Position numbers and translations under genes: made by a program. Positions 2,599-16,363 of a DNA stretch of 52,329 nt are shown in pieces. The notes under the pieces are model-generated. The model was not told where the DNA came from. It ran no database searches and saw only the letters and a program-made list of their open reading frames with translations. Each line of letters begins with the position of its first letter. The first letter of the stretch is position 1. The stretch lies in the sequence record NC_048799.1; one strand, 5' to 3'. Source of the DNA: Escherichia phage Mangalitsa.

Positions 2599-2620
2599 TT
2601 CAACTAATCTAAAGATGTAG

Positions 2621-2640
2621 CATTAGTTGCATGTGAATAA
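2621..2640 (+). promoter_or_regulatory. phage-RNAP-type promoter CATTAGTTGCATGTGAATAA
   Basis: Identical 20-mer recurs at 3749; family consensus CATTAGTTGR-ATGTGAA. Confidence 0.6.
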
Positions 2641-2660
2641 CAAACAATTTGGAGCATATC

Positions 2661-2825
2661 ATGTTCACAGTACATTACATAAACAAGAACTTATCCGAAG
2701 GTGTTTACAAGTGCGACACACTCAAAGAGGCAAGAGCGTTCGCCAGAAGCTTGAGAGAAGTAATATCTGTTGAAATCACAGATGGCGATAAAGAGTACGA
2801 TGTAGTTAAGCCTGAACTCCACTGA
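2661..2825 (+). CDS. hypothetical small protein (54 aa)
   Basis: ATG 21 nt after the promoter with GGAGCA RBS; below the 60-aa cutoff of the ORF track. Confidence 0.4.
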   Translation: MFTVHYINKNLSEGVYKCDTLKEARAFARSLREVISVEITDGDKEYDVVKPELH

Positions 2826-2838
2826 TTCCCAATATTCA

Positions 2839-2865
2839 GACAATATTGCTGCATGTAATATTGTC
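2839..2865. repeat. inverted repeat GACAATATT-N9-AATATTGTC
   Basis: Perfect 9-bp arms; belongs to the AATATTG..CAATATT family also at 3289, 3538 and the right end. Confidence 0.6.
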
Positions 2866-2876
2866 TCGATATTCGA

Positions 2877-2896
2877 CATTAGTTGGATGTGAAGTA
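2877..2896 (+). promoter_or_regulatory. phage-RNAP-type promoter CATTAGTTGGATGTGAAGTA
   Basis: Motif family member; the prefix GATATTCGACATTAGTTGG is shared with the copy at 10780. Confidence 0.55.
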
Positions 2897-3288
2897 ACAG
2901 AATACGGAGAAGTATTACTCACGTTGTTCGTGGGTTTCCGCATGTCATGTTGAAATCATTCTAGAAACATTTCAGCATGTCAACTAAACATACAGTGTTG
3001 TAATGATGTGGCAATCATTGAACTCCCTGTCTTTGGCCAGACAAAGTTCCAACAACCATGTGTGAAGTAGGATTATTATTCGAAACTGTTCTTCAACTAA
3101 GGCATGTTCACTTGTTTCAATATTGCTTCATCTCCTATTATCAAGGCCCACCCACAAGCCGGGAGATAACTTTGGCAAGACTGGAACTTTTGGACATGCT
3201 TCTTTCTTTCAATCAGAATTCGAAAGAAGAGAAGAGTCGGAGCAAAGTGGCATTACGAATCCCGTAGCCCGCCCCGATTTTGAGCAAC

Positions 3289-3306
3289 AAATATTGTGAC
3301 AATATT
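3289..3306. repeat. inverted-repeat 18-mer AATATTGTGACAATATTG, copy 1
   Basis: Exact duplicate at 3538..3555; imperfect palindrome. Confidence 0.65.
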
Positions 3307-3537
3307 GTCGCAGTATGGCATGTAAATATTGCTACAAATTGGCATGTTAGAATGTGGCAGAATTGTTAGAGGACTAATCACCTCGAAGATACAATTGTCT
3401 ACCAATCCGGCATGTTAATTTTGTAACAGTATTTGTGCCAAATTCGCATGTATTAGCTGTATCAGTATTAACCCAATATTCTTGCAACCCGCATGAATAC
3501 TGGCTTCCAGCCAAGCGAAGGCTTTATCATCGCATGT

Positions 3538-3555
3538 AATATTGTGACAATATTG
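3538..3555. repeat. inverted-repeat 18-mer AATATTGTGACAATATTG, copy 2
   Basis: Exact duplicate of 3289..3306. Confidence 0.65.
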
Positions 3556-3748
3556 GGATAAAACCCTTTATTTAATTAGTTTTATTATGCTGTACATGGT
3601 CGGTTTTCCGTACCTGCTGCGCCACTTCTTGATGTGCCAAATACATTCCAAGATAGGAGCAAACCTGTAATTAATGATGCATGTTTAGTTGTGACAAAAT
3701 TCGTCTATTTGGCAGATGAATTAGTTGCAATTAAGCATGTCCATTTAT

Positions 3749-3768
3749 CATTAGTTGCATGTGAATAA
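3749..3768 (+). promoter_or_regulatory. phage-RNAP-type promoter CATTAGTTGCATGTGAATAA, preceded by a partial copy at 3721..3734
   Basis: Identical to the 2621 copy; tandem partial motif TTAGTTGCAATTAA lies 28 nt upstream. Confidence 0.6.
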
Positions 3769-3869
3769 GACCAAATCTCTGTAAATTCTGCTGAAATTGT
3801 GTGGCAGATTTTAGAGAGATTATGTCTCCAAGCTAATCATTGTAGTTTTCGGCACTTCATGTGTCACAT

Positions 3870-3933
3870 ACTCCCTACAACTTTAAGGTGGATTGAGGTA
3901 AGACAAGACCTCCACAATCGTTCTGTAGGGAGT
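3870..3933 (+). other. structured 5' leader hairpin upstream of gene 3959
   Basis: 10-bp perfect long-range stem ACTCCCTACA / TGTAGGGAGT enclosing an inner GAGGT/ACCTC hairpin; sits between promoter 3749 and the RBS at 3948. Confidence 0.4.
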
Positions 3934-3958
3934 TTTCTTTTAACTTTGGAGAATAAAA

Positions 3959-4207
3959 ATGGATACTGTAATTAAAGCTGCTTGTTTCAAAGACCTGCAA
4001 GATGGTCAAATCTTCACTGTTCGTTCTGTGAAGTGGATTAAAGTAAATGAATCAGATAAGTACAATGCTGTAAAGTTCTTTGATTCAAGTAAGGCATGTA
4101 CTTTTAGCGACAATATTGTTGTCAATATTGAAGTCGAATTAACTCCTGAAGACGAAGATATTGAAGTGGCTCTTCGTAAAACTGCTGGATATAACGAGGG
4201 ATTCTAA
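3959..4207 (+). CDS. hypothetical early protein
   Basis: ORF with GGAGAA RBS; no recognisable motif. Confidence 0.5.
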   Translation: MDTVIKAACFKDLQDGQIFTVRSVKWIKVNESDKYNAVKFFDSSKACTFSDNIVVNIEVELTPEDEDIEVALRKTAGYNEGF

Positions 4208-5154: not shown

Positions 5155-5451
5155 ATGTCAATTCAGAAATTCCTTGATGTAGCAAACGTTGCTAAGAATT
5201 CGATTCCAAGCAATCCCGATATTCTCACCTCAATGCGTGTTGATGTTGCAATTCTGGCTTTGGCTGGTGAGCACATCAATGTACTTGAGAAGCAAGTTTC
5301 AGATTGTAAAAGTGAAATAATCACTTTGCGTGACCAGGTTGCCAGCCAAGAAGCGGCATATTCTGACCTCATGGATGCGAAAAACCATTTGCAACAACGG
5401 CTTGCAGATGCACTTGAAGAAATCGAAAGGTTAACACCTCCAACCAAATAA
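5155..5451 (+). CDS. hypothetical protein, coiled-coil-like
   Basis: ORF; heptad-like charged sequence. Confidence 0.5.
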   Translation: MSIQKFLDVANVAKNSIPSNPDILTSMRVDVAILALAGEHINVLEKQVSDCKSEIITLRDQVASQEAAYSDLMDAKNHLQQRLADALEEIERLTPPTK

Positions 5452-5466
5452 CAATTGGGAGTTATT

Positions 5467-5730
5467 ATGGCTACTAAGACTGGAATGATGATTGTCCCAA
5501 GCCGTAATAACTCTTTAAGCGGCTTTACTCCATATAAAATCTATGAAGTAATTTCTGGCACTGGTGAAGCAAACCTGTCAGAAGTTGCTTTGAAGCTAGG
5601 TAGGATGGTCCACTCCGACATTTCCTGTAACGTAGTTGATGATGAAGGTAAAATCCGTTTTGTAACAATGGATTTCTTTCGTGAATTTAATCTTAAATCT
5701 GAAATCGGTGTTTTATATCATGAAATTTAA
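5467..5730 (+). CDS. hypothetical protein
   Basis: ORF-track frame 5455 begins at TTG; first ATG at 5467. Confidence 0.5.
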   Translation: MATKTGMMIVPSRNNSLSGFTPYKIYEVISGTGEANLSEVALKLGRMVHSDISCNVVDDEGKIRFVTMDFFREFNLKSEIGVLYHEI

Positions 5731-5947
5731 ATGTGTTGCTTCAACCAAAGATTATGTTCCAGTTGGCTTCATCGTTGAAGGTGAAGCTATCTCACCTTTG
5801 GAATTTAAAGTGACCAAATCGGCTGAGGATGTTTCTCCAGCATTTCGTAAAGGTGCTGTCGTTCCTATGAATGGTGTATTCTGGACATGGCAGCGTGACC
5901 ATGAAGCAGAATTTGCAGATATTTGTGAACAAGGGTTATTGCAATGA
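5720..5947 (+). CDS. hypothetical protein, tandem paralog A
   Basis: Starts MKFKCVASTKDY..., contains VFWTW; resembles the next gene. Confidence 0.5.
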   Translation: MKFKCVASTKDYVPVGFIVEGEAISPLEFKVTKSAEDVSPAFRKGAVVPMNGVFWTWQRDHEAEFADICEQGLLQ

Positions 5948-6174
5948 CAAAGTTTAAATGTGTGAAATCGACCTCTTCATCTGAGTATTCTCCGAAGGTT
6001 GGAGATATTATTGAGGGAGAGCTTGTAACTATTAAAGACGAGGATGGAGTGCAGACTCGCATAAACATCACAGAAGACAGTGACCGCAGAACTTCCTATG
6101 GCGCCCCATATTGGTCTGCGGGAGAGAGTGTTCCCTTGGAAGGCAGTGTCTGGACTTGGGAAGAAGTTAAATAA
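5944..6174 (+). CDS. hypothetical protein, tandem paralog B
   Basis: Starts MTKFKCVKSTSS..., contains SVWTW. Confidence 0.5.
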   Translation: MTKFKCVKSTSSSEYSPKVGDIIEGELVTIKDEDGVQTRINITEDSDRRTSYGAPYWSAGESVPLEGSVWTWEEVK

Positions 6175-10381: not shown

Positions 10382-10591
10382 TTCCAGGCGGTTTCTTCGA
10401 AGTGCCAAGCGGGTTTGTTGCTCGCATTGGCCTTCGGCATTCTTCTGGGGCATTAGTGGGATTTGATTCTGACCTCTTAGGGAAGAAAGGCATTATACAC
10501 TTATCGCCAAATAGGTGTCAAGCACTTTCTTCATTTATTTTAATTTATTCTTATTATTCTTTTTGTTTGGAATATTGGAATAATTCTTAAA

Positions 10592-10610
10592 CATTAGTTG
10601 GAATTGAAAT
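10592..10610 (+). promoter_or_regulatory. phage-RNAP-type promoter CATTAGTTGGAATTGAAAT
   Basis: Motif family member, ending 1 nt before the ATG at 10609. Confidence 0.5.
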
Positions 10611-10785
10611 GATTAAAGTCCTGGAAAAAGATAATGTAACCTTCACACGCCAATGCCAGTTGTGTGCCTCTGTTGTGTCTTATGAATTCTCTGACTTAAA
10701 GATGCGCACAGGAAAGAATGACCGAGGATACTTCGCATACAGATTTATTCCTTGTCCTGTTTGTAAGAAAGATATTCGACATTAG
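10609..10785 (+). CDS. hypothetical zinc-ribbon protein (58 aa)
   Basis: CQLC ... CPVC pairs; stop codon lies inside the next promoter motif; below ORF-track cutoff. Confidence 0.45.
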   Translation: MIKVLEKDNVTFTRQCQLCASVVSYEFSDLKMRTGKNDRGYFAYRFIPCPVCKKDIRH

Positions 10786-10799
10786 TTGGAATTGGAGAA
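10780..10799 (+). promoter_or_regulatory. phage-RNAP-type promoter CATTAGTTGGAATTGGAGAA
   Basis: Motif family member; transcription would enter the GC-rich 10800..11434 leader. Confidence 0.5.
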
Positions 10800-11434
10800 A
10801 CAACATCAGATAATAACTTTGTAACTCGGTAGACCGTTGCGGCCGCATCGTGAGAGAATGTTCGACTCATTCTGCAAAGTTATTTTCGATGGAATGTTTC
10901 CATCACATACATTTATCTTTTAACATAGGCCAAAGGGCCGGAATACTTCTTCGCAGAAAAGCTATTCACTTGTTATAGGCGATGTATTGGGATGAATTGG
11001 AACTAAATAAGCAAGCTGTTAGGGCTGAATAATTAGAGGGTAGTGCCTCATGCTTATGTTAGTCATTCGAAAATAGGTTTGTGCCACAAGCTGCTGGTGC
11101 TCTGAGGAAGTCGGACAAACAGGGCTTAGAGTGGCATAATCCGCACAAAACCTCGCCACCAGCTATGCCAAAGCAGGTGGATTGGGTGAATGTATTGGGA
11201 AGGGTTGCAAAGCCTCTGTGACACGCCTGAGCCGCAAGGCGACGACACTCATGTGATTAGCGTATCGCACCCCTAACGGGAGTAACCCTTCACCAATGCA
11301 GTTATCCAGAATTGACACAAACGGTAGGCAGCGGCCCGATTTTCGGCCTTCCTGCGCTGCCCTGTGGCCTGTTTCCTGGGCCAAAAGATGAGAAGAGAAG
11401 TCACAAACACTGAATCGAAAATTGGAGAGTTCCT

Positions 11435-13196: not shown

Positions 13197-14041
13197 GTTG
13201 CCAAGGGCAAACTTGAGAAGCTAAGCTAATTCGATCTGGCACGCACTGGAAGATTTCCGGTGCTGCCTTGAACCCATTCCGGCGTGAGTGGGCTTCAATG
13301 AGCATTCTTGTGATTAGAGTTGGGAGGTAGGCCGATGCCCAATCTCGTGGCCCAGACAAGAGTGTTCATTGAAGTTATTTCAATATGGATGTACAGTAGG
13401 ATGAGAAGCTTCTCCGATAAGAGGAGTGAAAGTAGCTGGAAGGACATGCCCACAGAACTGACCGAGACCATTACAGTAGTAGCGATTCACTACCGCGAAA
13501 CAGTATTGAAATTGGCAACGGTTCATGCGGAAGGGCATCAGTGAAATCTACGTTCAGTGCGCGTGGTGAAATGAAGGAGTAGTGTCCTGAGAATTAGCCC
13601 TGTCTGGTTAAATGCCAGAGTCCATATTAAAGTAACTGGAAACTATTCCTGTCAGGTACTCCTATAATGTCTGAAACGGAGTCAGGTCGCACCTGGTAGC
13701 CGAGGCTATTTACCTACAGATGGATACCTGACAGAAGTAGTTTTCTGAGTCTTACGACGGGCCTAAACTGCCTGGAGTTATTGCGACTGTTTTATTCATT
13801 TAAAATAAATGCAAATGATTCTGAAATGCGAGTTGCGGCTTAATTAAATTTGAGTCCTCTCCGTGGTCTTCCAATCCCATGTAACCAAATTTGGCGCATT
13901 GTGGCTTCGAGATGTGATTAATAAATCGGAGCAATAATTAATTTGTATTCTGCGATGCAGGGCAGGCTTAAGTCCCTCAGTGCGCGTAGGGATGTGATAG
14001 AGTACAAACTTAATTATTAACCTAACCTATAGAGAAACATT

Positions 14042-14296
14042 ATGGAAAGCATTGCCGTATTAATTGTTGGTGTTCTGTTGTTTGCTGCATACATGATTCC
14101 AACTCTCATTGCATTTAGTCGTGGTCATGCTTCCAAGTGGGGCATTTTCATTACAAATCTGTTACTAGGTTTAACAGGAATCTTTTGGGTTGCTGCATTA
14201 ATCTGGTCGCTGTCCAATAAAGGTCAGCAACAATCTCTTGTTGTAAATGTTGGCAGTAATAATGTCAGCAATGTATCACAAAAGGATTCGCTTTAA
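14042..14296 (+). CDS. superinfection-immunity-like small membrane protein
   Basis: Two predicted TM helices; MIPTLIAFSRGHASKWGIFITNLLLGLTGIFWVAALIWSL fits the A..R.H....I..N.LLG.T.I.W..A.IW pattern I recall for this family. Confidence 0.5.
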   Translation: MESIAVLIVGVLLFAAYMIPTLIAFSRGHASKWGIFITNLLLGLTGIFWVAALIWSLSNKGQQQSLVVNVGSNNVSNVSQKDSL

Positions 14297-14543
14297 GTGA
14301 ATTGCCCTGAGCATGGAAATAAACTGCTCTAACCGATGGTATCTACAAAGGTAGATTAAATCAGGTTGCCTGTTGGTACTTGGGTTCAACACCTGCTTGC
14401 ACTCGCAAAGTAGTGCCTTGTACCTGAGATGAAGTGAGTCGGGACCATCAATCCCACGTTATGTCAAAACACAGTAGGCGACTCACAGATTCTACAAGCC
14501 TCGCAGTTTGGGAAAACCTGCGTTACCAAAACCCACCTCATTC

Positions 14544-14639
14544 GGACGAGTAGCTCAGAAGGTCTGCTCCAGAGCTTAGTCAGGTAGAGCAATCTGTTCG
14601 ACAGATGTGTCGTTGGTTCGAATCCAACCTTGTCCACCA
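14544..14639 (+). tRNA. tRNA-like gene with an expanded D region; candidate anticodon UCG (Arg) if the anticodon loop is GTTCGAC
   Basis: 7-bp acceptor stem GGACGAG/CTTGTCC, canonical T-arm GTTGG-TTCGAAT-CCAAC, discriminator A and encoded CCA; D-arm-like GCTT-AGTCAGGTA-GAGC preceded by about 20 extra nt; 93 nt before CCA. Confidence 0.4.
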
Positions 14640-14669
14640 GCTTTAATAACCCGCAACACTGGAGTCCTT

Positions 14670-14810
14670 ATGGATTTTGATGCACTTGATAACTTAGACT
14701 TCGGTGCTGCCGAAGAAGCAATTGAAGAACTGAAGAAGAAACAGGACGAAGAAGCAATCGTTCCTGGTGCTGGCGACAACGACTGCTCAAGTGGTGCGTG
14801 CGCCATCTAA
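14670..14810 (+). CDS. hypothetical small acidic peptide (46 aa) with Cys-containing C-terminus
   Basis: GGAG RBS; MDFDALDNLDFGAAEE...GAGDNDCSSGACAI. Confidence 0.35.
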   Translation: MDFDALDNLDFGAAEEAIEELKKKQDEEAIVPGAGDNDCSSGACAI

Positions 14811-14818
14811 GGTGAATC

Positions 14819-15055
14819 ATGCAACAGCTTAAGTCAATCTTTCTTGGCGTCTTGACTGCATTGGGTATTCTCCTTGCAGTGTTCCTCAAAGGCAAAAGCT
14901 CAGGCAAAGCCGAGGAGCGCCAGGAAGCCAAAGAGAAGCAATTCGATTCCATTAAAGAATCTATCGAGATTAAAACGCATGTTCAGAAAGAAGTGTCTAG
15001 CAGTTCTGATAGCAATGTCGATAGTGAGTTGCTCTCAAAGTGGGTTCGTAAGTGA
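14819..15055 (+). CDS. small membrane-anchored protein, possible i-spanin-like
   Basis: N-terminal TM IFLGVLTALGILLAVFL followed by a charged helical region; AAGGTG RBS. Confidence 0.4.
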   Translation: MQQLKSIFLGVLTALGILLAVFLKGKSSGKAEERQEAKEKQFDSIKESIEIKTHVQKEVSSSSDSNVDSELLSKWVRK

Positions 15056-15188
15056 TTACTGCATGATTGCACAACCAATATATTTGGATGTTGCAGAAGT
15101 GAAAGTTTTGTCACGCGAAACCAAAACACAGATTTTAGTCCACAATGAAACGTGGGCACAAAAGTGTTCGAAACTTACCCGACAGTGA
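14979..15188 (+). CDS. possible o-spanin-like lipoprotein overlapping the preceding gene in the +1 frame
   Basis: MFRKKCLAVLIAMSIVSC: positive n-region, hydrophobic core and lipobox-like IVSC; starts inside 14819..15055 and extends past it; rare codons weaken the call. Confidence 0.3.
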   Translation: MFRKKCLAVLIAMSIVSCSQSGFVSDYCMIAQPIYLDVAEVKVLSRETKTQILVHNETWAQKCSKLTRQ

Positions 15189-16085
15189 GTGAACAAGACG
15201 GACGTCTATAACTTCCCACATAAAGTCGAGGGAGTGCGCGACTTTAAATAACGAGACTCTAGCCACTTGTGGTATGGCAGGTGTAATTCCTGCAAGTTGC
15301 TCTGGGCATAACAATTGAAATTGCTGCCTCGCATTGAACGCGAAAAAGTTCAGGTAGTCACTTCCTAGAACAGTGGCCGGGAACAGACCTAGACAAAAGT
15401 GCTTGAGAACGTTAGCTCTGTCTTGCCAGCATTAATGGCACGTTGGCCGCGTAAAGGCCACAGCGTCTGACCAACGTATCGGTCAACCAAATTCAACGGA
15501 TTCGTAGAGTTAATGAAACCTGCACGATGGGATAGGGATGAAGCATCCGAGGCCGACTGTGTAATTGTGAACGCGGAGTTCACCGAATCCACCAAATCAA
15601 TGGGCTAGTGCAAATGTCAGTCACTAGAAGATGTGTTGCAAAACGTCTTCCATGATGTGCAAAGTGTCAGTCACGTGCCCACCACTTTCCTAACAGTTAT
15701 GCCTCTGTTCAAAAGGCTCATGCGAGCGTCTGGCATACCGTAGCGATACGGCTTAGTTGCGCTGATTGTGTTGTGTCGAAAGAAAGTTCAGGCTTTCGTT
15801 TGAGTTCCTCCTCATCTCGAAGTTAGCTGGATTCAAAATCCAGACTATGTTCCTATTCACATGAAATATGCAAGTCGAGGGTTCTTAATATCTGACATAG
15901 GTATTAAGCGGGTTTATACTTTTCCCCGATGGTCCCCATAAACAAGGTTGATTCACTTGGGCGGTTCGAATCAAATTTAATAAGTGTCTTGGCCGCAGTG
16001 GAAACATCATTTAAGCCAATTTATTGTAATGTTCGTAATAGTCCACGTCAGGGCACTTACTTAAATTTTATCTAGAGAGAGAAAC

Positions 16086-16307
16086 ATGAAAACTGCTGAA
16101 ATTGCCGAAGAGATTTATATGGCCTTAATTGCCAACCAAATTACAAGTGAAGTCCTGCACATGGATATTGAAGAAGTTCGCAAGGCCTTTGGTGGTTTTG
16201 CAATCTTGTCAATCGAAGCTGCGGAAGCACTGACAAACACGTACAACCATCGTGAATACGAGAAGCGGTCTGTACTAAATGCGTCGCTTCAAGCGTCATT
16301 AAAATAA
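16086..16307 (+). CDS. hypothetical protein
   Basis: ORF with GAGAGAGA RBS. Confidence 0.45.
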   Translation: MKTAEIAEEIYMALIANQITSEVLHMDIEEVRKAFGGFAILSIEAAEALTNTYNHREYEKRSVLNASLQASLK

Positions 16308-16363
16308 TACCATTATCATGGTGCGGAGCTAATTAATCTCCCACCATATGAACCGGAGAGCAA

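Follow-up and report, generated by a model that had tools for sequence, protein, structure and literature searches.

The stretch of DNA considered here (the window) is the whole 52,329-nucleotide (nt) sequence NC_048799.1 of Escherichia phage Mangalitsa, a myovirus of the genus Carltongylesvirus (Chaseviridae, Cleopatravirinae) that has a T7-like RNA polymerase and carries all of its genes on the + strand, and the element in question occupies the 897 bases at positions 15189-16085. On its 5' side the region is adjoined by the Rz/Rz1 spanin genes (14819-15188) and on its 3' side by the gene of a gp32-like protein of 73 amino acids (16086-16307; phrog_32967), after which follow thyX and the genes of the primase/helicase and the DNA polymerase; apart from the spanins, the proteins encoded near the region are a superinfection-immunity protein and proteins without an assigned function. 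The 897 bases match 66 phage records, the closest being Escherichia phage phiEcoM-GJ1 at 96% identity. In that phage and in most relatives the equivalent stretch is left unannotated, while a few records place short hypothetical proteins in the gap (six in vB_Shi_2KOFFS, one of 128 amino acids in EaPF9 and one of 55 in the PYps phages). A preliminary description of the window had placed the region downstream of a tRNA-like gene, which does lie upstream at ca 14546-14640, and had left it as either a second large structured RNA, a repeat-built regulatory region or decayed coding sequence. It is the structured RNA that finds support, since no fewer than 15 helices and two pseudoknots are borne out by covariation. 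The finding is real: these structured non-coding RNA elements form a family that is specific to the lineage, has strong comparative backing and had not been described before. In full-text searches of the literature, neither papers on phiEcoM-GJ1, Chaseviridae and Carltongylesvirus nor those on structured-RNA discovery were found to describe these RNAs.

The region is non-coding. No credible open reading frame (ORF) had been seen on the + strand, and the longest + strand ORFs listed within 15189-16085 do indeed encode only 31-48 amino acids. When the gap is aligned across 19 genomes of the same genus, the variable columns are spread evenly over the three codon phases (107, 104 and 120 of 331, p=0.52) and 3-base periodicity is absent from every 150-nt segment of the region; thyX from the same genomes, taken as a control, has 60, 42 and 156 variable sites in the three phases (p=1e-19). 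The lengths of insertions and deletions in the region are not multiples of three. Moreover, the ORF of 128 amino acids that is annotated over the homologous DNA of EaPF9 matches Fifi44, a phage of its own genus, only piecewise and in different frames. The preliminary description would have taken translated-search (tblastx) matches to a degraded gene, or absence from relatives, as refuting its observation, and in both respects the outcome favours a real non-coding feature.

Within the genus, mean pairwise identity is 95.4% for the core of the 3' domain described below (15690-15985), 94.9% for the gp32-like gene and 86.9% for thyX, with some blocks of 30-60 nt being 99-100% identical across all 19 genomes. 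Beyond the genus, a profile search found homologous segments in Faunus (Faunusvirus), in phiA050, in 4HA13 (Sabourvirus), in PM1 (Suwonvirus) and in Loessnervirus, and homologues also occur in Pantoea phage SSEM1 and in metagenomic relatives, such that all the genera of Cleopatravirinae examined have the region; Proteus phage Myduc (Myducvirus) has a reduced and diverged copy, found by one of the covariance models introduced below (R2, 19.4 bits, E=8e-4). Two members of Nefertitivirinae (PVN02 and Spp001) give no match to either model, and in the corresponding part of their genomes there is no large stretch without ORFs; no similar sequence is present in E. coli genomes. A wider scan was made with the exact word TGAAATATRCAAG-N2-3-AGGGTT, a single motif by which diverged members are missed. 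In IMG/VR it recovered only contigs of Chaseviridae size (52-57 kb); in metagenomes it gave 72 matches, eight loci of which extend past the seed, with Chaseviridae-type sequence; and among 100,044 genomes of bacteria and archaea there were 12 matches, all confined to the seed. The family is confined to Cleopatravirinae, with one copy per genome that is always just upstream of the replication gene block. Indeed, the 3' domain directly precedes this block even where the next gene is a different one, namely an extra ORF of 196 amino acids in Berlingot or a nucleotidyltransferase gene in Myduc.

For the secondary structure a helix map was assembled, and two covariance models were then built, R2 for a central junction and R1 for the hairpins distal to it, with the one match per genome being re-aligned. 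The alignments of the 3' domain held 17-30 non-redundant sequences, and the controls were 500 shuffles together with alignments in which the 3' partners had been slid by 1-3 columns. Since the MAFFT alignment had the variable hairpins out of register, RNAalifold recovered from it only helix H2, helix H3 and part of H7, and the other helices were spotted by eye and then tested. The structure at 15690-16061 is one composite domain of ca 370 nt, in which an H-type pseudoknot is followed by a multi-helix junction, closed by a long-range helix, and then by three further hairpins and a closing helix; besides the pseudoknot and the long-range helix it has about ten helices. The pseudoknot, at 15692-15717 on the + strand (as are all of the elements that follow), is formed by H1 (15692-15696/15705-15709) and H2 (15701-15704/15714-15717); in a MAFFT alignment not fitted to the structure (A2, 30 sequences) 96.3% of its cells are paired, with both core stems at 100%, and 32 cells are changed on both sides as against 5.5 in shuffles (reached in 0 of 500), the slid controls pairing at 13-53%.

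The long-range helix, H3 (15730-15737/15867-15874; CUGGCAUA/UAUGCAAG), was found independently by RNAalifold, and one of its otherwise invariant pairs, C:G in the majority of genomes, is replaced by U:A in phiA050 and in the loci L081 and L073 and by A:U in Myduc. It encloses H4 (15738-15742/15747-15751), which is capped by a GCGA tetraloop, H12 (15767-15771/15857-15861), H6 (15778-15782/15793-15797), whose loop is the word AAAGTTCAGG that the preliminary description had listed as a repeat, H7 (15800-15804/15816-15820), whose loop holds a near-invariant CUCCU(C/U), and H8 (15827-15833/15837-15843). The last of these is the perfect 7-bp hairpin CTGGATT-CAA-AATCCAG that had been noticed from the letters at 15827-15843; it is present as described and its pairing is kept by compensatory changes in relatives, one such hairpin being in itself not unusual by chance (P=0.24). 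For this central junction (15730-15874) R2 gives one + strand match per genome, at 57-184 bits. In alignment A7, which is fitted to the model structure and so inflates the percentage paired, 92.2% of 703 cells are standard pairs and 22 of 34 pairs change on both sides; on each of five measures the observed value lies beyond all 500 shuffles, and the slid controls are 23-47% paired. G-U pairs are frequent in the helices, as at one pair of H7 that is UG in 15 of 17 sequences.

The distal part of the domain (15875-15974) contains the invariant junction (G)AGGGUU, the conserved GAUGGUCCCCAUAAAC and three hairpins, H9 (15884-15890/15902-15908), H10 (15909-15912/15925-15928) and H11 (15948-15954/15968-15974, with the loop CUUGGNCGGUU). 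In H9 the two strands read CUUAAUA/UAUUAAG in the window, CUGAAG/CUUCAG in Faunus, CCAGCU/AGCUGG in phiA050, CCGCAA/UUGCGG in PM1 and UCAUAU/AUAUGA in Fifi44. R1 gives one match per genome for this part, at 54-124 bits, and in the likewise model-fitted alignment A8 76.1% of cells are paired and 13 of 18 pairs are changed on both sides, with 0 of 500 shuffles reaching the observed value on four of five measures. Beyond it, the closing helix H13 (15979-15986/16054-16061) encloses a terminal sub-domain that contains H14 (15998-16002/16042-16046); on the unfitted alignment A1 these two helices are 89.1% paired and 8 of their 12 pairs are changed on both sides, and their covariation score is reached in 0 of 500 shuffles. 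In ST32 and PO103-1 the inner part of 15979-16061 is deleted and both strands of H13 are retained. The structure stops ca 25 nt 5' of the ATG at 16086, and neither R1 nor R2 finds a second copy in the window.

Several loops and junctions are invariant, or nearly so, across the aligned genera, these being UCUGGCAUA, CUCCU(C/U), UGAAAUAU(G/A)CAAG, AGGGUU and UUCCUA.AACA, and the stems around them drift by compensatory change. The region is kept by selection on the secondary and tertiary structure of its + strand RNA. Two further pairings that had been drawn by eye were dropped for lack of covariation, one that would join the H11 loop UGGN to CCCA or NCCA in the manner of a T-box, the other a pairing of the CUCCUC loop with the loop of element M1 (see below) or with the downstream Shine-Dalgarno sequence.

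The 5' half of the region is of another kind, and looks like an array of independent elements instead of one globular RNA. M1 (15223-15260) is an H-type pseudoknot with stems S1 (15223-15228/15239-15244) and S2 (15231-15235/15256-15260) and a conserved UUUAAAUAACG between the stems. It was found by nhmmer in 31 of the 33 loci searched, and in an unfitted MAFFT alignment (A10, 26 sequences) 89.5% of its cells are paired, four of the five S2 pairs are changed on both sides and the covariation score is 0.181 as against 0.105 when shuffled (0 of 500), with slid controls at 30-45% paired. Two small hairpins follow, GCCA-CTTG-TGGT at 15262-15273 and GCAGG-TGTAATT-CCTGC at 15277-15293, for which compensatory variants were picked out by eye in alignment A9 (GCAAC/GTTGC in ST32, GCTAC/GTAGC in Pel53, CCAGTG/CACTGG in Faunus and phiA050). 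M2 (UUGCUCUGGGCAUAACAAUUGAAAUUGCUGCCUCG, 15297-15331) could form the nested helices GGCA/UGCC and CAAU/AUUG, a pairing proposed from its letters; its conserved counterparts in Faunus, 4HA13, L032 and L073 stand 5' of M1. M4 (15349-15378) opens with an invariant UUCAGGU, followed by a hairpin (15356-15361/15373-15378) with a nearly invariant loop of 11 nt, UUCCUA(G/A)AACA; in alignment A11 (21 sequences) the hairpin is 80.2% paired and five of its six pairs are changed on both sides (covariation score reached in 0 of 500 shuffles; slid controls 9-35% paired).

The remaining elements of the 5' half range from the nearly invariant to the dispensable. M5 (15398-15462), which contains the hairpin UGGCC-GCGUAAA-GGCCA, has a per-block identity of 0.99-1.00 over the 19 same-genus genomes and is also found by nhmmer in L073 and Berlingot; it is too invariant to yield covariation. 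M6 (15463-15595) is more variable (mean identity 84%) and is absent, on a presence/absence map, from PYps23T and IMGVR7747, while nhmmer finds two tandem copies of it in PO103-1 (L024 1752-1962), where the gap also has a stop-free stretch of 202 codons. M7 (15596-15692) has an imperfect outer stem, UGGGC...GCCCA, followed by CCA, and a 17-nt direct repeat, GUGCAAA(G)UGUCAGUCAC, at 15608-15624 and 15657-15674, on either side of a variable hairpin at 15627-15650. Its outer stem changes from GGGC/GCCC to GGCC/GGCC in relatives, the inner hairpin varies yet still pairs, and both copies of the repeat are kept in PM1, Berlingot and EaPF9 (alignment A12). M7 is not tRNA-like by Rfam; PYps23T and one of the IMG/VR contigs lack it, ST32 and EcoM1 have a replacement, and in PM1 and Loessnervirus it is placed before the spanin genes. 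The order of the elements varies as well, with M2 before M1 in Faunus, 4HA13 and L032, and the 3' domain always last.

The repeats that first drew attention to the region can now be read against this map. All of them are present, within one base of where they had been placed: AAGTCGAGGG at 15223 and 15872, AAAGTTCAGG at 15345 and 15783 and AA(A/G)TGTCAGTCAC at 15612 and 15662. Maximal direct repeats of at least 10 nt number three, where 0.31 are expected from 1000 dinucleotide-preserving shuffles (P~0.002), whilst the excess of those of at least 9 nt is not significant (P=0.15). The palindrome GGCC, also reported, occurs in five copies as against ca 1.9 expected. The internal duplication that had been claimed thus holds for short words but not on any larger scale, with self-BLAST against the whole window giving nothing significant. 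One copy of AAGTCGAGGG supplies the first stem and the loop of the M1 pseudoknot and the other forms a junction, and the identity of the two as a 10-mer is lost in relatives; AAAGTTCAGG, single-stranded and conserved as a motif at 15345, is at 15783 just the genus-specific loop of a variable hairpin. Only GTCAGTCAC is a conserved duplicate, being in reality part of the 17-nt repeat GTGCAAATGTCAGTCAC, which occurs twice across genera but belongs to M7 and is missing from several phages of the same genus. The suggestion of a repeat-built regulatory region is for the most part rejected.

With regard to transcription, a weight matrix was built from the nine annotated phage promoters of phiEcoM-GJ1. 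Its matches include 12762 (strong, and the nearest upstream) and 16785, with none in 13197-16085, and sigma-70 promoters and intrinsic terminators inside the region are at or below shuffle expectation. There being neither promoter nor terminator inside, the region is probably part of a long transcript of the phage RNA polymerase, which would run on through the gp32-like gene, thyX, the primase/helicase gene and the DNA polymerase gene. The tRNA-like gene upstream (ca 14546-14640, some 550 nt away) scores 27.9 bits with the Rfam tRNA model, below the gathering score of 29 bits; it has a good acceptor stem, a T-arm and an encoded CCA, and ca 22 additional bases separate its acceptor stem from its D-arm. 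ARAGORN makes no call for the copy in the window and calls those of phiEcoM-GJ1 and ST32 as a 95-nt tRNA-Leu(cag), while GenBank records label the gene tRNA-Arg, to which that of phiEcoM-GJ1 adds 'may contain an intron'. In Loessnervirus, tRNA matches above the gathering score end 7-11 nt 5' of the 3' domain (38 bits in Fifi44, 30.7 bits in Berlingot), and a tRNA-Cys lies upstream of the domain in PM1 (by ca 90 nt) and in L032 (by ca 360 nt).

Two further ORF-free stretches precede the region, 13197-14041 and 14297-14669, and both are conserved at the nucleotide level across Faunus, phiA050, 4HA13, PM1, Loessnervirus and L032; some 350 nt of the window (13376-13730) are absent from phiEcoM-GJ1 and ST32 and present in L032 and phiA050. 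At 13811-13843, preceded by UUUAAAAUAAAU, lies the frame GCA AAU GAU UCU GAA AUG CGA GUU GCG GCU UAA, that is, ANDSEMRVAA and a stop, over which a sub-threshold match to the Rfam model tmRNA_permuted (20.5 bits; tmRNA, transfer-messenger RNA) aligns exactly. This tag frame is kept, with synonymous changes, in ST32, phiA050, 4HA13, Fifi44, Faunus (as ANDSEMRMVA) and L032 (as ANDSEIRVAA). ARAGORN finds no tmRNA anywhere in the window; the locus may nevertheless be an unrecognised phage tmRNA-like gene, one whose tRNA-like domain has not been located. For comparison, an exhaustive survey of RefSeq virus genomes in 2014 found ssrA only in mycobacteriophages, with Bacillus phage G and mycobacteriophage DS6A being named outside its dataset (PMC4131195).

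Searched with the 4227 models of Rfam 15, 15189-16085 gives no match at gathering thresholds, nor any at E up to 10, either alone or in a 3.3-kb context, and the homologous stretch of seven relatives gives no match either; recognisable membership of GOLLD, ROOL, tmRNA, RNase P, the group I and group II introns and the riboswitches is therefore excluded. The closest kind is that of the large, structured, tRNA-adjacent RNAs borne by phages (GOLLD, ROOL, and RNAs C and D of T4), which the present RNA resembles in setting and complexity without being a member of those families. Like GOLLD and ROOL (RF01998, RF03087), it runs to hundreds of nucleotides with many helices and pseudoknots, is borne by phages next to a tRNA and has no protein partner nearby; unlike them, it occurs in virulent enterobacterial myoviruses, has no promoter or terminator of its own and combines shuffled small modules with a domain of 370 nt. 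The stable RNAs C and D of T4 (species 1 and 2) are non-tRNA species of ca 120-140 nt that are co-transcribed with the phage tRNAs and freed by host tRNA processing. Here the likeness is one of setting, and the processing of the present RNA is presumed. As a structured leader it is comparable to the pseudoknot ahead of T4 gene 32 and the 5' stem-loops of ompA, being itself pseudoknotted and ahead of replication genes, but it is some ten times larger and more elaborate than such leaders, has a variable spacer to the start codon and has no known autoregulatory protein. Mitochondrial tRNA punctuation, acting on the transcripts of a T7-like RNA polymerase, has in common with the present case co-transcription and tRNA-like elements at boundaries. 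Lastly, there is some likeness to tmRNA (ssrA) in the H-type pseudoknots, in the M7 stem followed by ACCA and in the tag frame of the neighbouring region.

As to what the RNA does, the reading that we prefer, tentatively and at somewhat less than an even chance, is that of a protective and regulatory leader, which would set the stability and the translation of the replication operon. By analogy with tRNA punctuation, host tRNA-processing enzymes (RNase P, RNase Z/E) would probably cut the polycistronic transcript at the tRNA-like elements, such that the mRNA of the replication genes would begin with the 3' domain, or the domain would be set free as a stable RNA; the invariant loops would then be presented to a partner, whether protein, ribosome or other RNA. 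A number of points weigh against this. The ends, the abundance and the processing of the RNA are inferred, and the whole-region minimum free energy is only weakly better than that of shuffles (z-score -1.84 for the + strand, -0.72 for the - strand, the + strand thus folding slightly better), for which reason covariation was relied on. As alignments A7 and A8 flatter the structure, three elements (the 15692-15717 pseudoknot, H13/H14 and M1) were also scored on plain MAFFT alignments. The 25-100 nt between structure and start codon are variable or partly deletable, which argues against a classical riboswitch expression platform; the genes of these phages are all syntenic, which makes positional conservation weak evidence for a role in cis; and, with a variable order of modules and dispensable M6 and M7, the 5' half may be several unrelated small RNAs. 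Moreover, a mere stabiliser of the 5' end would not require so complex a fold with its invariant loops, which favours a specific partner in trans. Indeed, the main rival to the leader, with which it is compatible, is a free-standing, trans-acting structured RNA, excised and diverting a host factor as a decoy, a sponge or a ribonucleoprotein scaffold. That factor would possibly be a translation component, with the RNA being one of a set of translation-related phage RNAs that includes the tmRNA-like and tRNA-like genes. We consider this possible though unlikely. In its favour are the complex fold with its two pseudoknots, GNRA tetraloop and invariant loops, the tRNA-like elements that adjoin it (as they do GOLLD and ROOL), the tmRNA-type tag 1.4 kb upstream with its synonymous changes across genera and the different next gene in Berlingot and Myduc; suggestive too is the resemblance of the near-invariant CUCCU(C/U) hairpin loop to the anti-Shine-Dalgarno CCUCC of 16S rRNA. 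Yet that resemblance spans 5-6 nt and could be chance, a promoter or terminator of its own was not found and the neighbouring proteins yield no partner. Further still from the leader, and in our view improbable, is the notion that the whole island from 13.2 to 16.1 kb is a toolkit of translation-targeting RNAs, consisting of the tmRNA-like gene, the aberrant tRNA-Arg-like gene and the RNA studied here, which would be a new class, neither a leader nor a member of a known one, with the CUCCU(C/U) loop as an anti-Shine-Dalgarno mimic and, like the other fixed loops, capturing a ribosomal or mRNA partner. Were this so, the effect would be to reprogramme translation in the host or to escape a defence directed at translation.

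The other explanations deny either that the RNA is new or that there is an RNA at all, and are very much less probable than these. That it is a diverged member of a described class (group I intron, RNase P RNA, a piece of tmRNA, riboswitch, GOLLD or ROOL) might be argued from its large size, its pseudoknots and its long-range helix around a junction, all typical of ribozymes and large riboswitches, from words that recall the R and S elements of group I introns (CAGACUAU at 15840 and AAUAGUCC at 16040) and from the split DNA polymerase gene of 4HA13, by which introns may occur in the lineage. The Rfam searches speak against it, as do the lack of a split host gene at the flanks and the lack of any relative without the element, as an intron-less allele would be; we give it very little credence. 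Of the individual candidates, the group I intron fails in that the supposed S is the 3' strand of H14 and becomes UACCGAC in Faunus and phiA050 while the supposed R is unchanged, with no covariation between the two, and in that the flanking Rz1 and gp32-like genes are complete and the element is in every relative. A tRNA inside 15189-16085 is found by neither ARAGORN nor Rfam, and the T-loop-like GGUUCGAAUC (15964-15973) is the loop and 3' strand of H11; for a tmRNA in the region there is no tag frame, no T-arm and no Rfam tmRNA match. An element acting as DNA, be it a replication origin, iterons or another repeat-built region for protein binding, is just as improbable. Its position immediately 5' of the primase/helicase and polymerase genes, the 17-nt direct repeat found twice, 49-50 nt apart, across genera, and the excess of repeats of at least 10 nt would all suit such an element. 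Compensatory changes, G-U pairs, a GNRA loop and pseudoknots, however, point to single-stranded RNA and not to duplex DNA; the sole conserved repeat pair is in M7, which many phages of the genus lack and other genera have elsewhere; the cumulative GC skew climbs steadily with no inflection near 15-16 kb (GC content 0.45); and there is no phage promoter inside, unlike in the primary origin of T7. Least probable of all is decayed coding sequence, or a set of real small ORFs that annotation had missed. The hypothetical proteins of vB_Shi_2KOFFS, EaPF9 and the PYps phages might suggest as much, as might the longest ORF of the window here (15929-16075, 48 amino acids), which is open in 13 of the 19 same-genus genomes. 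This ORF is, however, cut to 21 amino acids in the other six and has no ATG start in other genera, and the lack of codon periodicity and of any kept frame, the non-triplet indels and a conservation that peaks at helices and loops, above the level of the neighbouring thyX, are grounds for rejecting decayed coding sequence.

The phages related to phiEcoM-GJ1 are widely isolated and have been proposed for therapy and biocontrol, and their genome papers either take the stretch to be empty or assign spurious hypothetical proteins to it, such that annotators now have a concrete reason against ORF calls here. Taken with its two ORF-free neighbours, ca 4% of the genome (ca 2 kb in three stretches) appears to be conserved RNA, under constraint above that of a neighbouring enzyme gene. 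The role of comparable RNAs (GOLLD, ROOL, T4 C and D) has long been an open question, for which a virulent phage of 52 kb, with E. coli K-12 hosts and a large structured RNA beside tRNA-like genes, is a tractable test case, and the two covariance models and the helix map are a basis for building an Rfam family.

A few observations concern the surroundings of the region. Several records label the gp32-like protein 'tail tape measure protein', an implausible name for a product of 73 amino acids from a replication module. The small downstream genes of Faunus, 4HA13, PM1 and Loessnervirus form one family by BLASTP, with the motif FAD.FM.ERYER, to which a frame of phiA050 has been added by eye only; the gp32-like protein of the window has no BLASTP match to the small proteins of those four, and its membership of the family is suggested by a short resemblance. 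In Myduc the homologue (L125 5137-5273) is shortened and retains CCUCCUCAU and AUGAAAUAUUCAAG; what comes after it is neither a gp32-like gene nor thyX but a nucleotidyltransferase of 189 amino acids (5428-5997; DUF6932, with a weak PolyA_pol head domain match), which is annotated as a tRNA CCA-adding enzyme.

A gene for an HNH endonuclease sits between Rz1 and the RNA region in vB_Shi_2KOFFS and vB_EcoM_DE15 (L009 787-1233 and L018 1033-1479), and in some relatives further HNH genes are found between the gp32-like gene and thyX or past thyX; the edges of the island are thus rearranged by homing endonucleases. At 16318-16357, between the gp32-like gene and thyX, the window has a strong hairpin (AUGGUGCGGAG...CUCCCACCAU), the equivalent of which is annotated as a rho-independent terminator in vB_EcoM_SA91KD. 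It is possible that a unit comprising the RNA and the gp32-like gene has its 3' end, or is processed, at this hairpin. Elsewhere in phiEcoM-GJ1, long ORF-free stretches occur at 2848-4046 and 10429-11029 (ca 2600-3900 and 10400-11000 in the window), and these two contain matches to the phage promoter, at 2618, 2874, 3746, 10448, 10589 and 10777 of the window.

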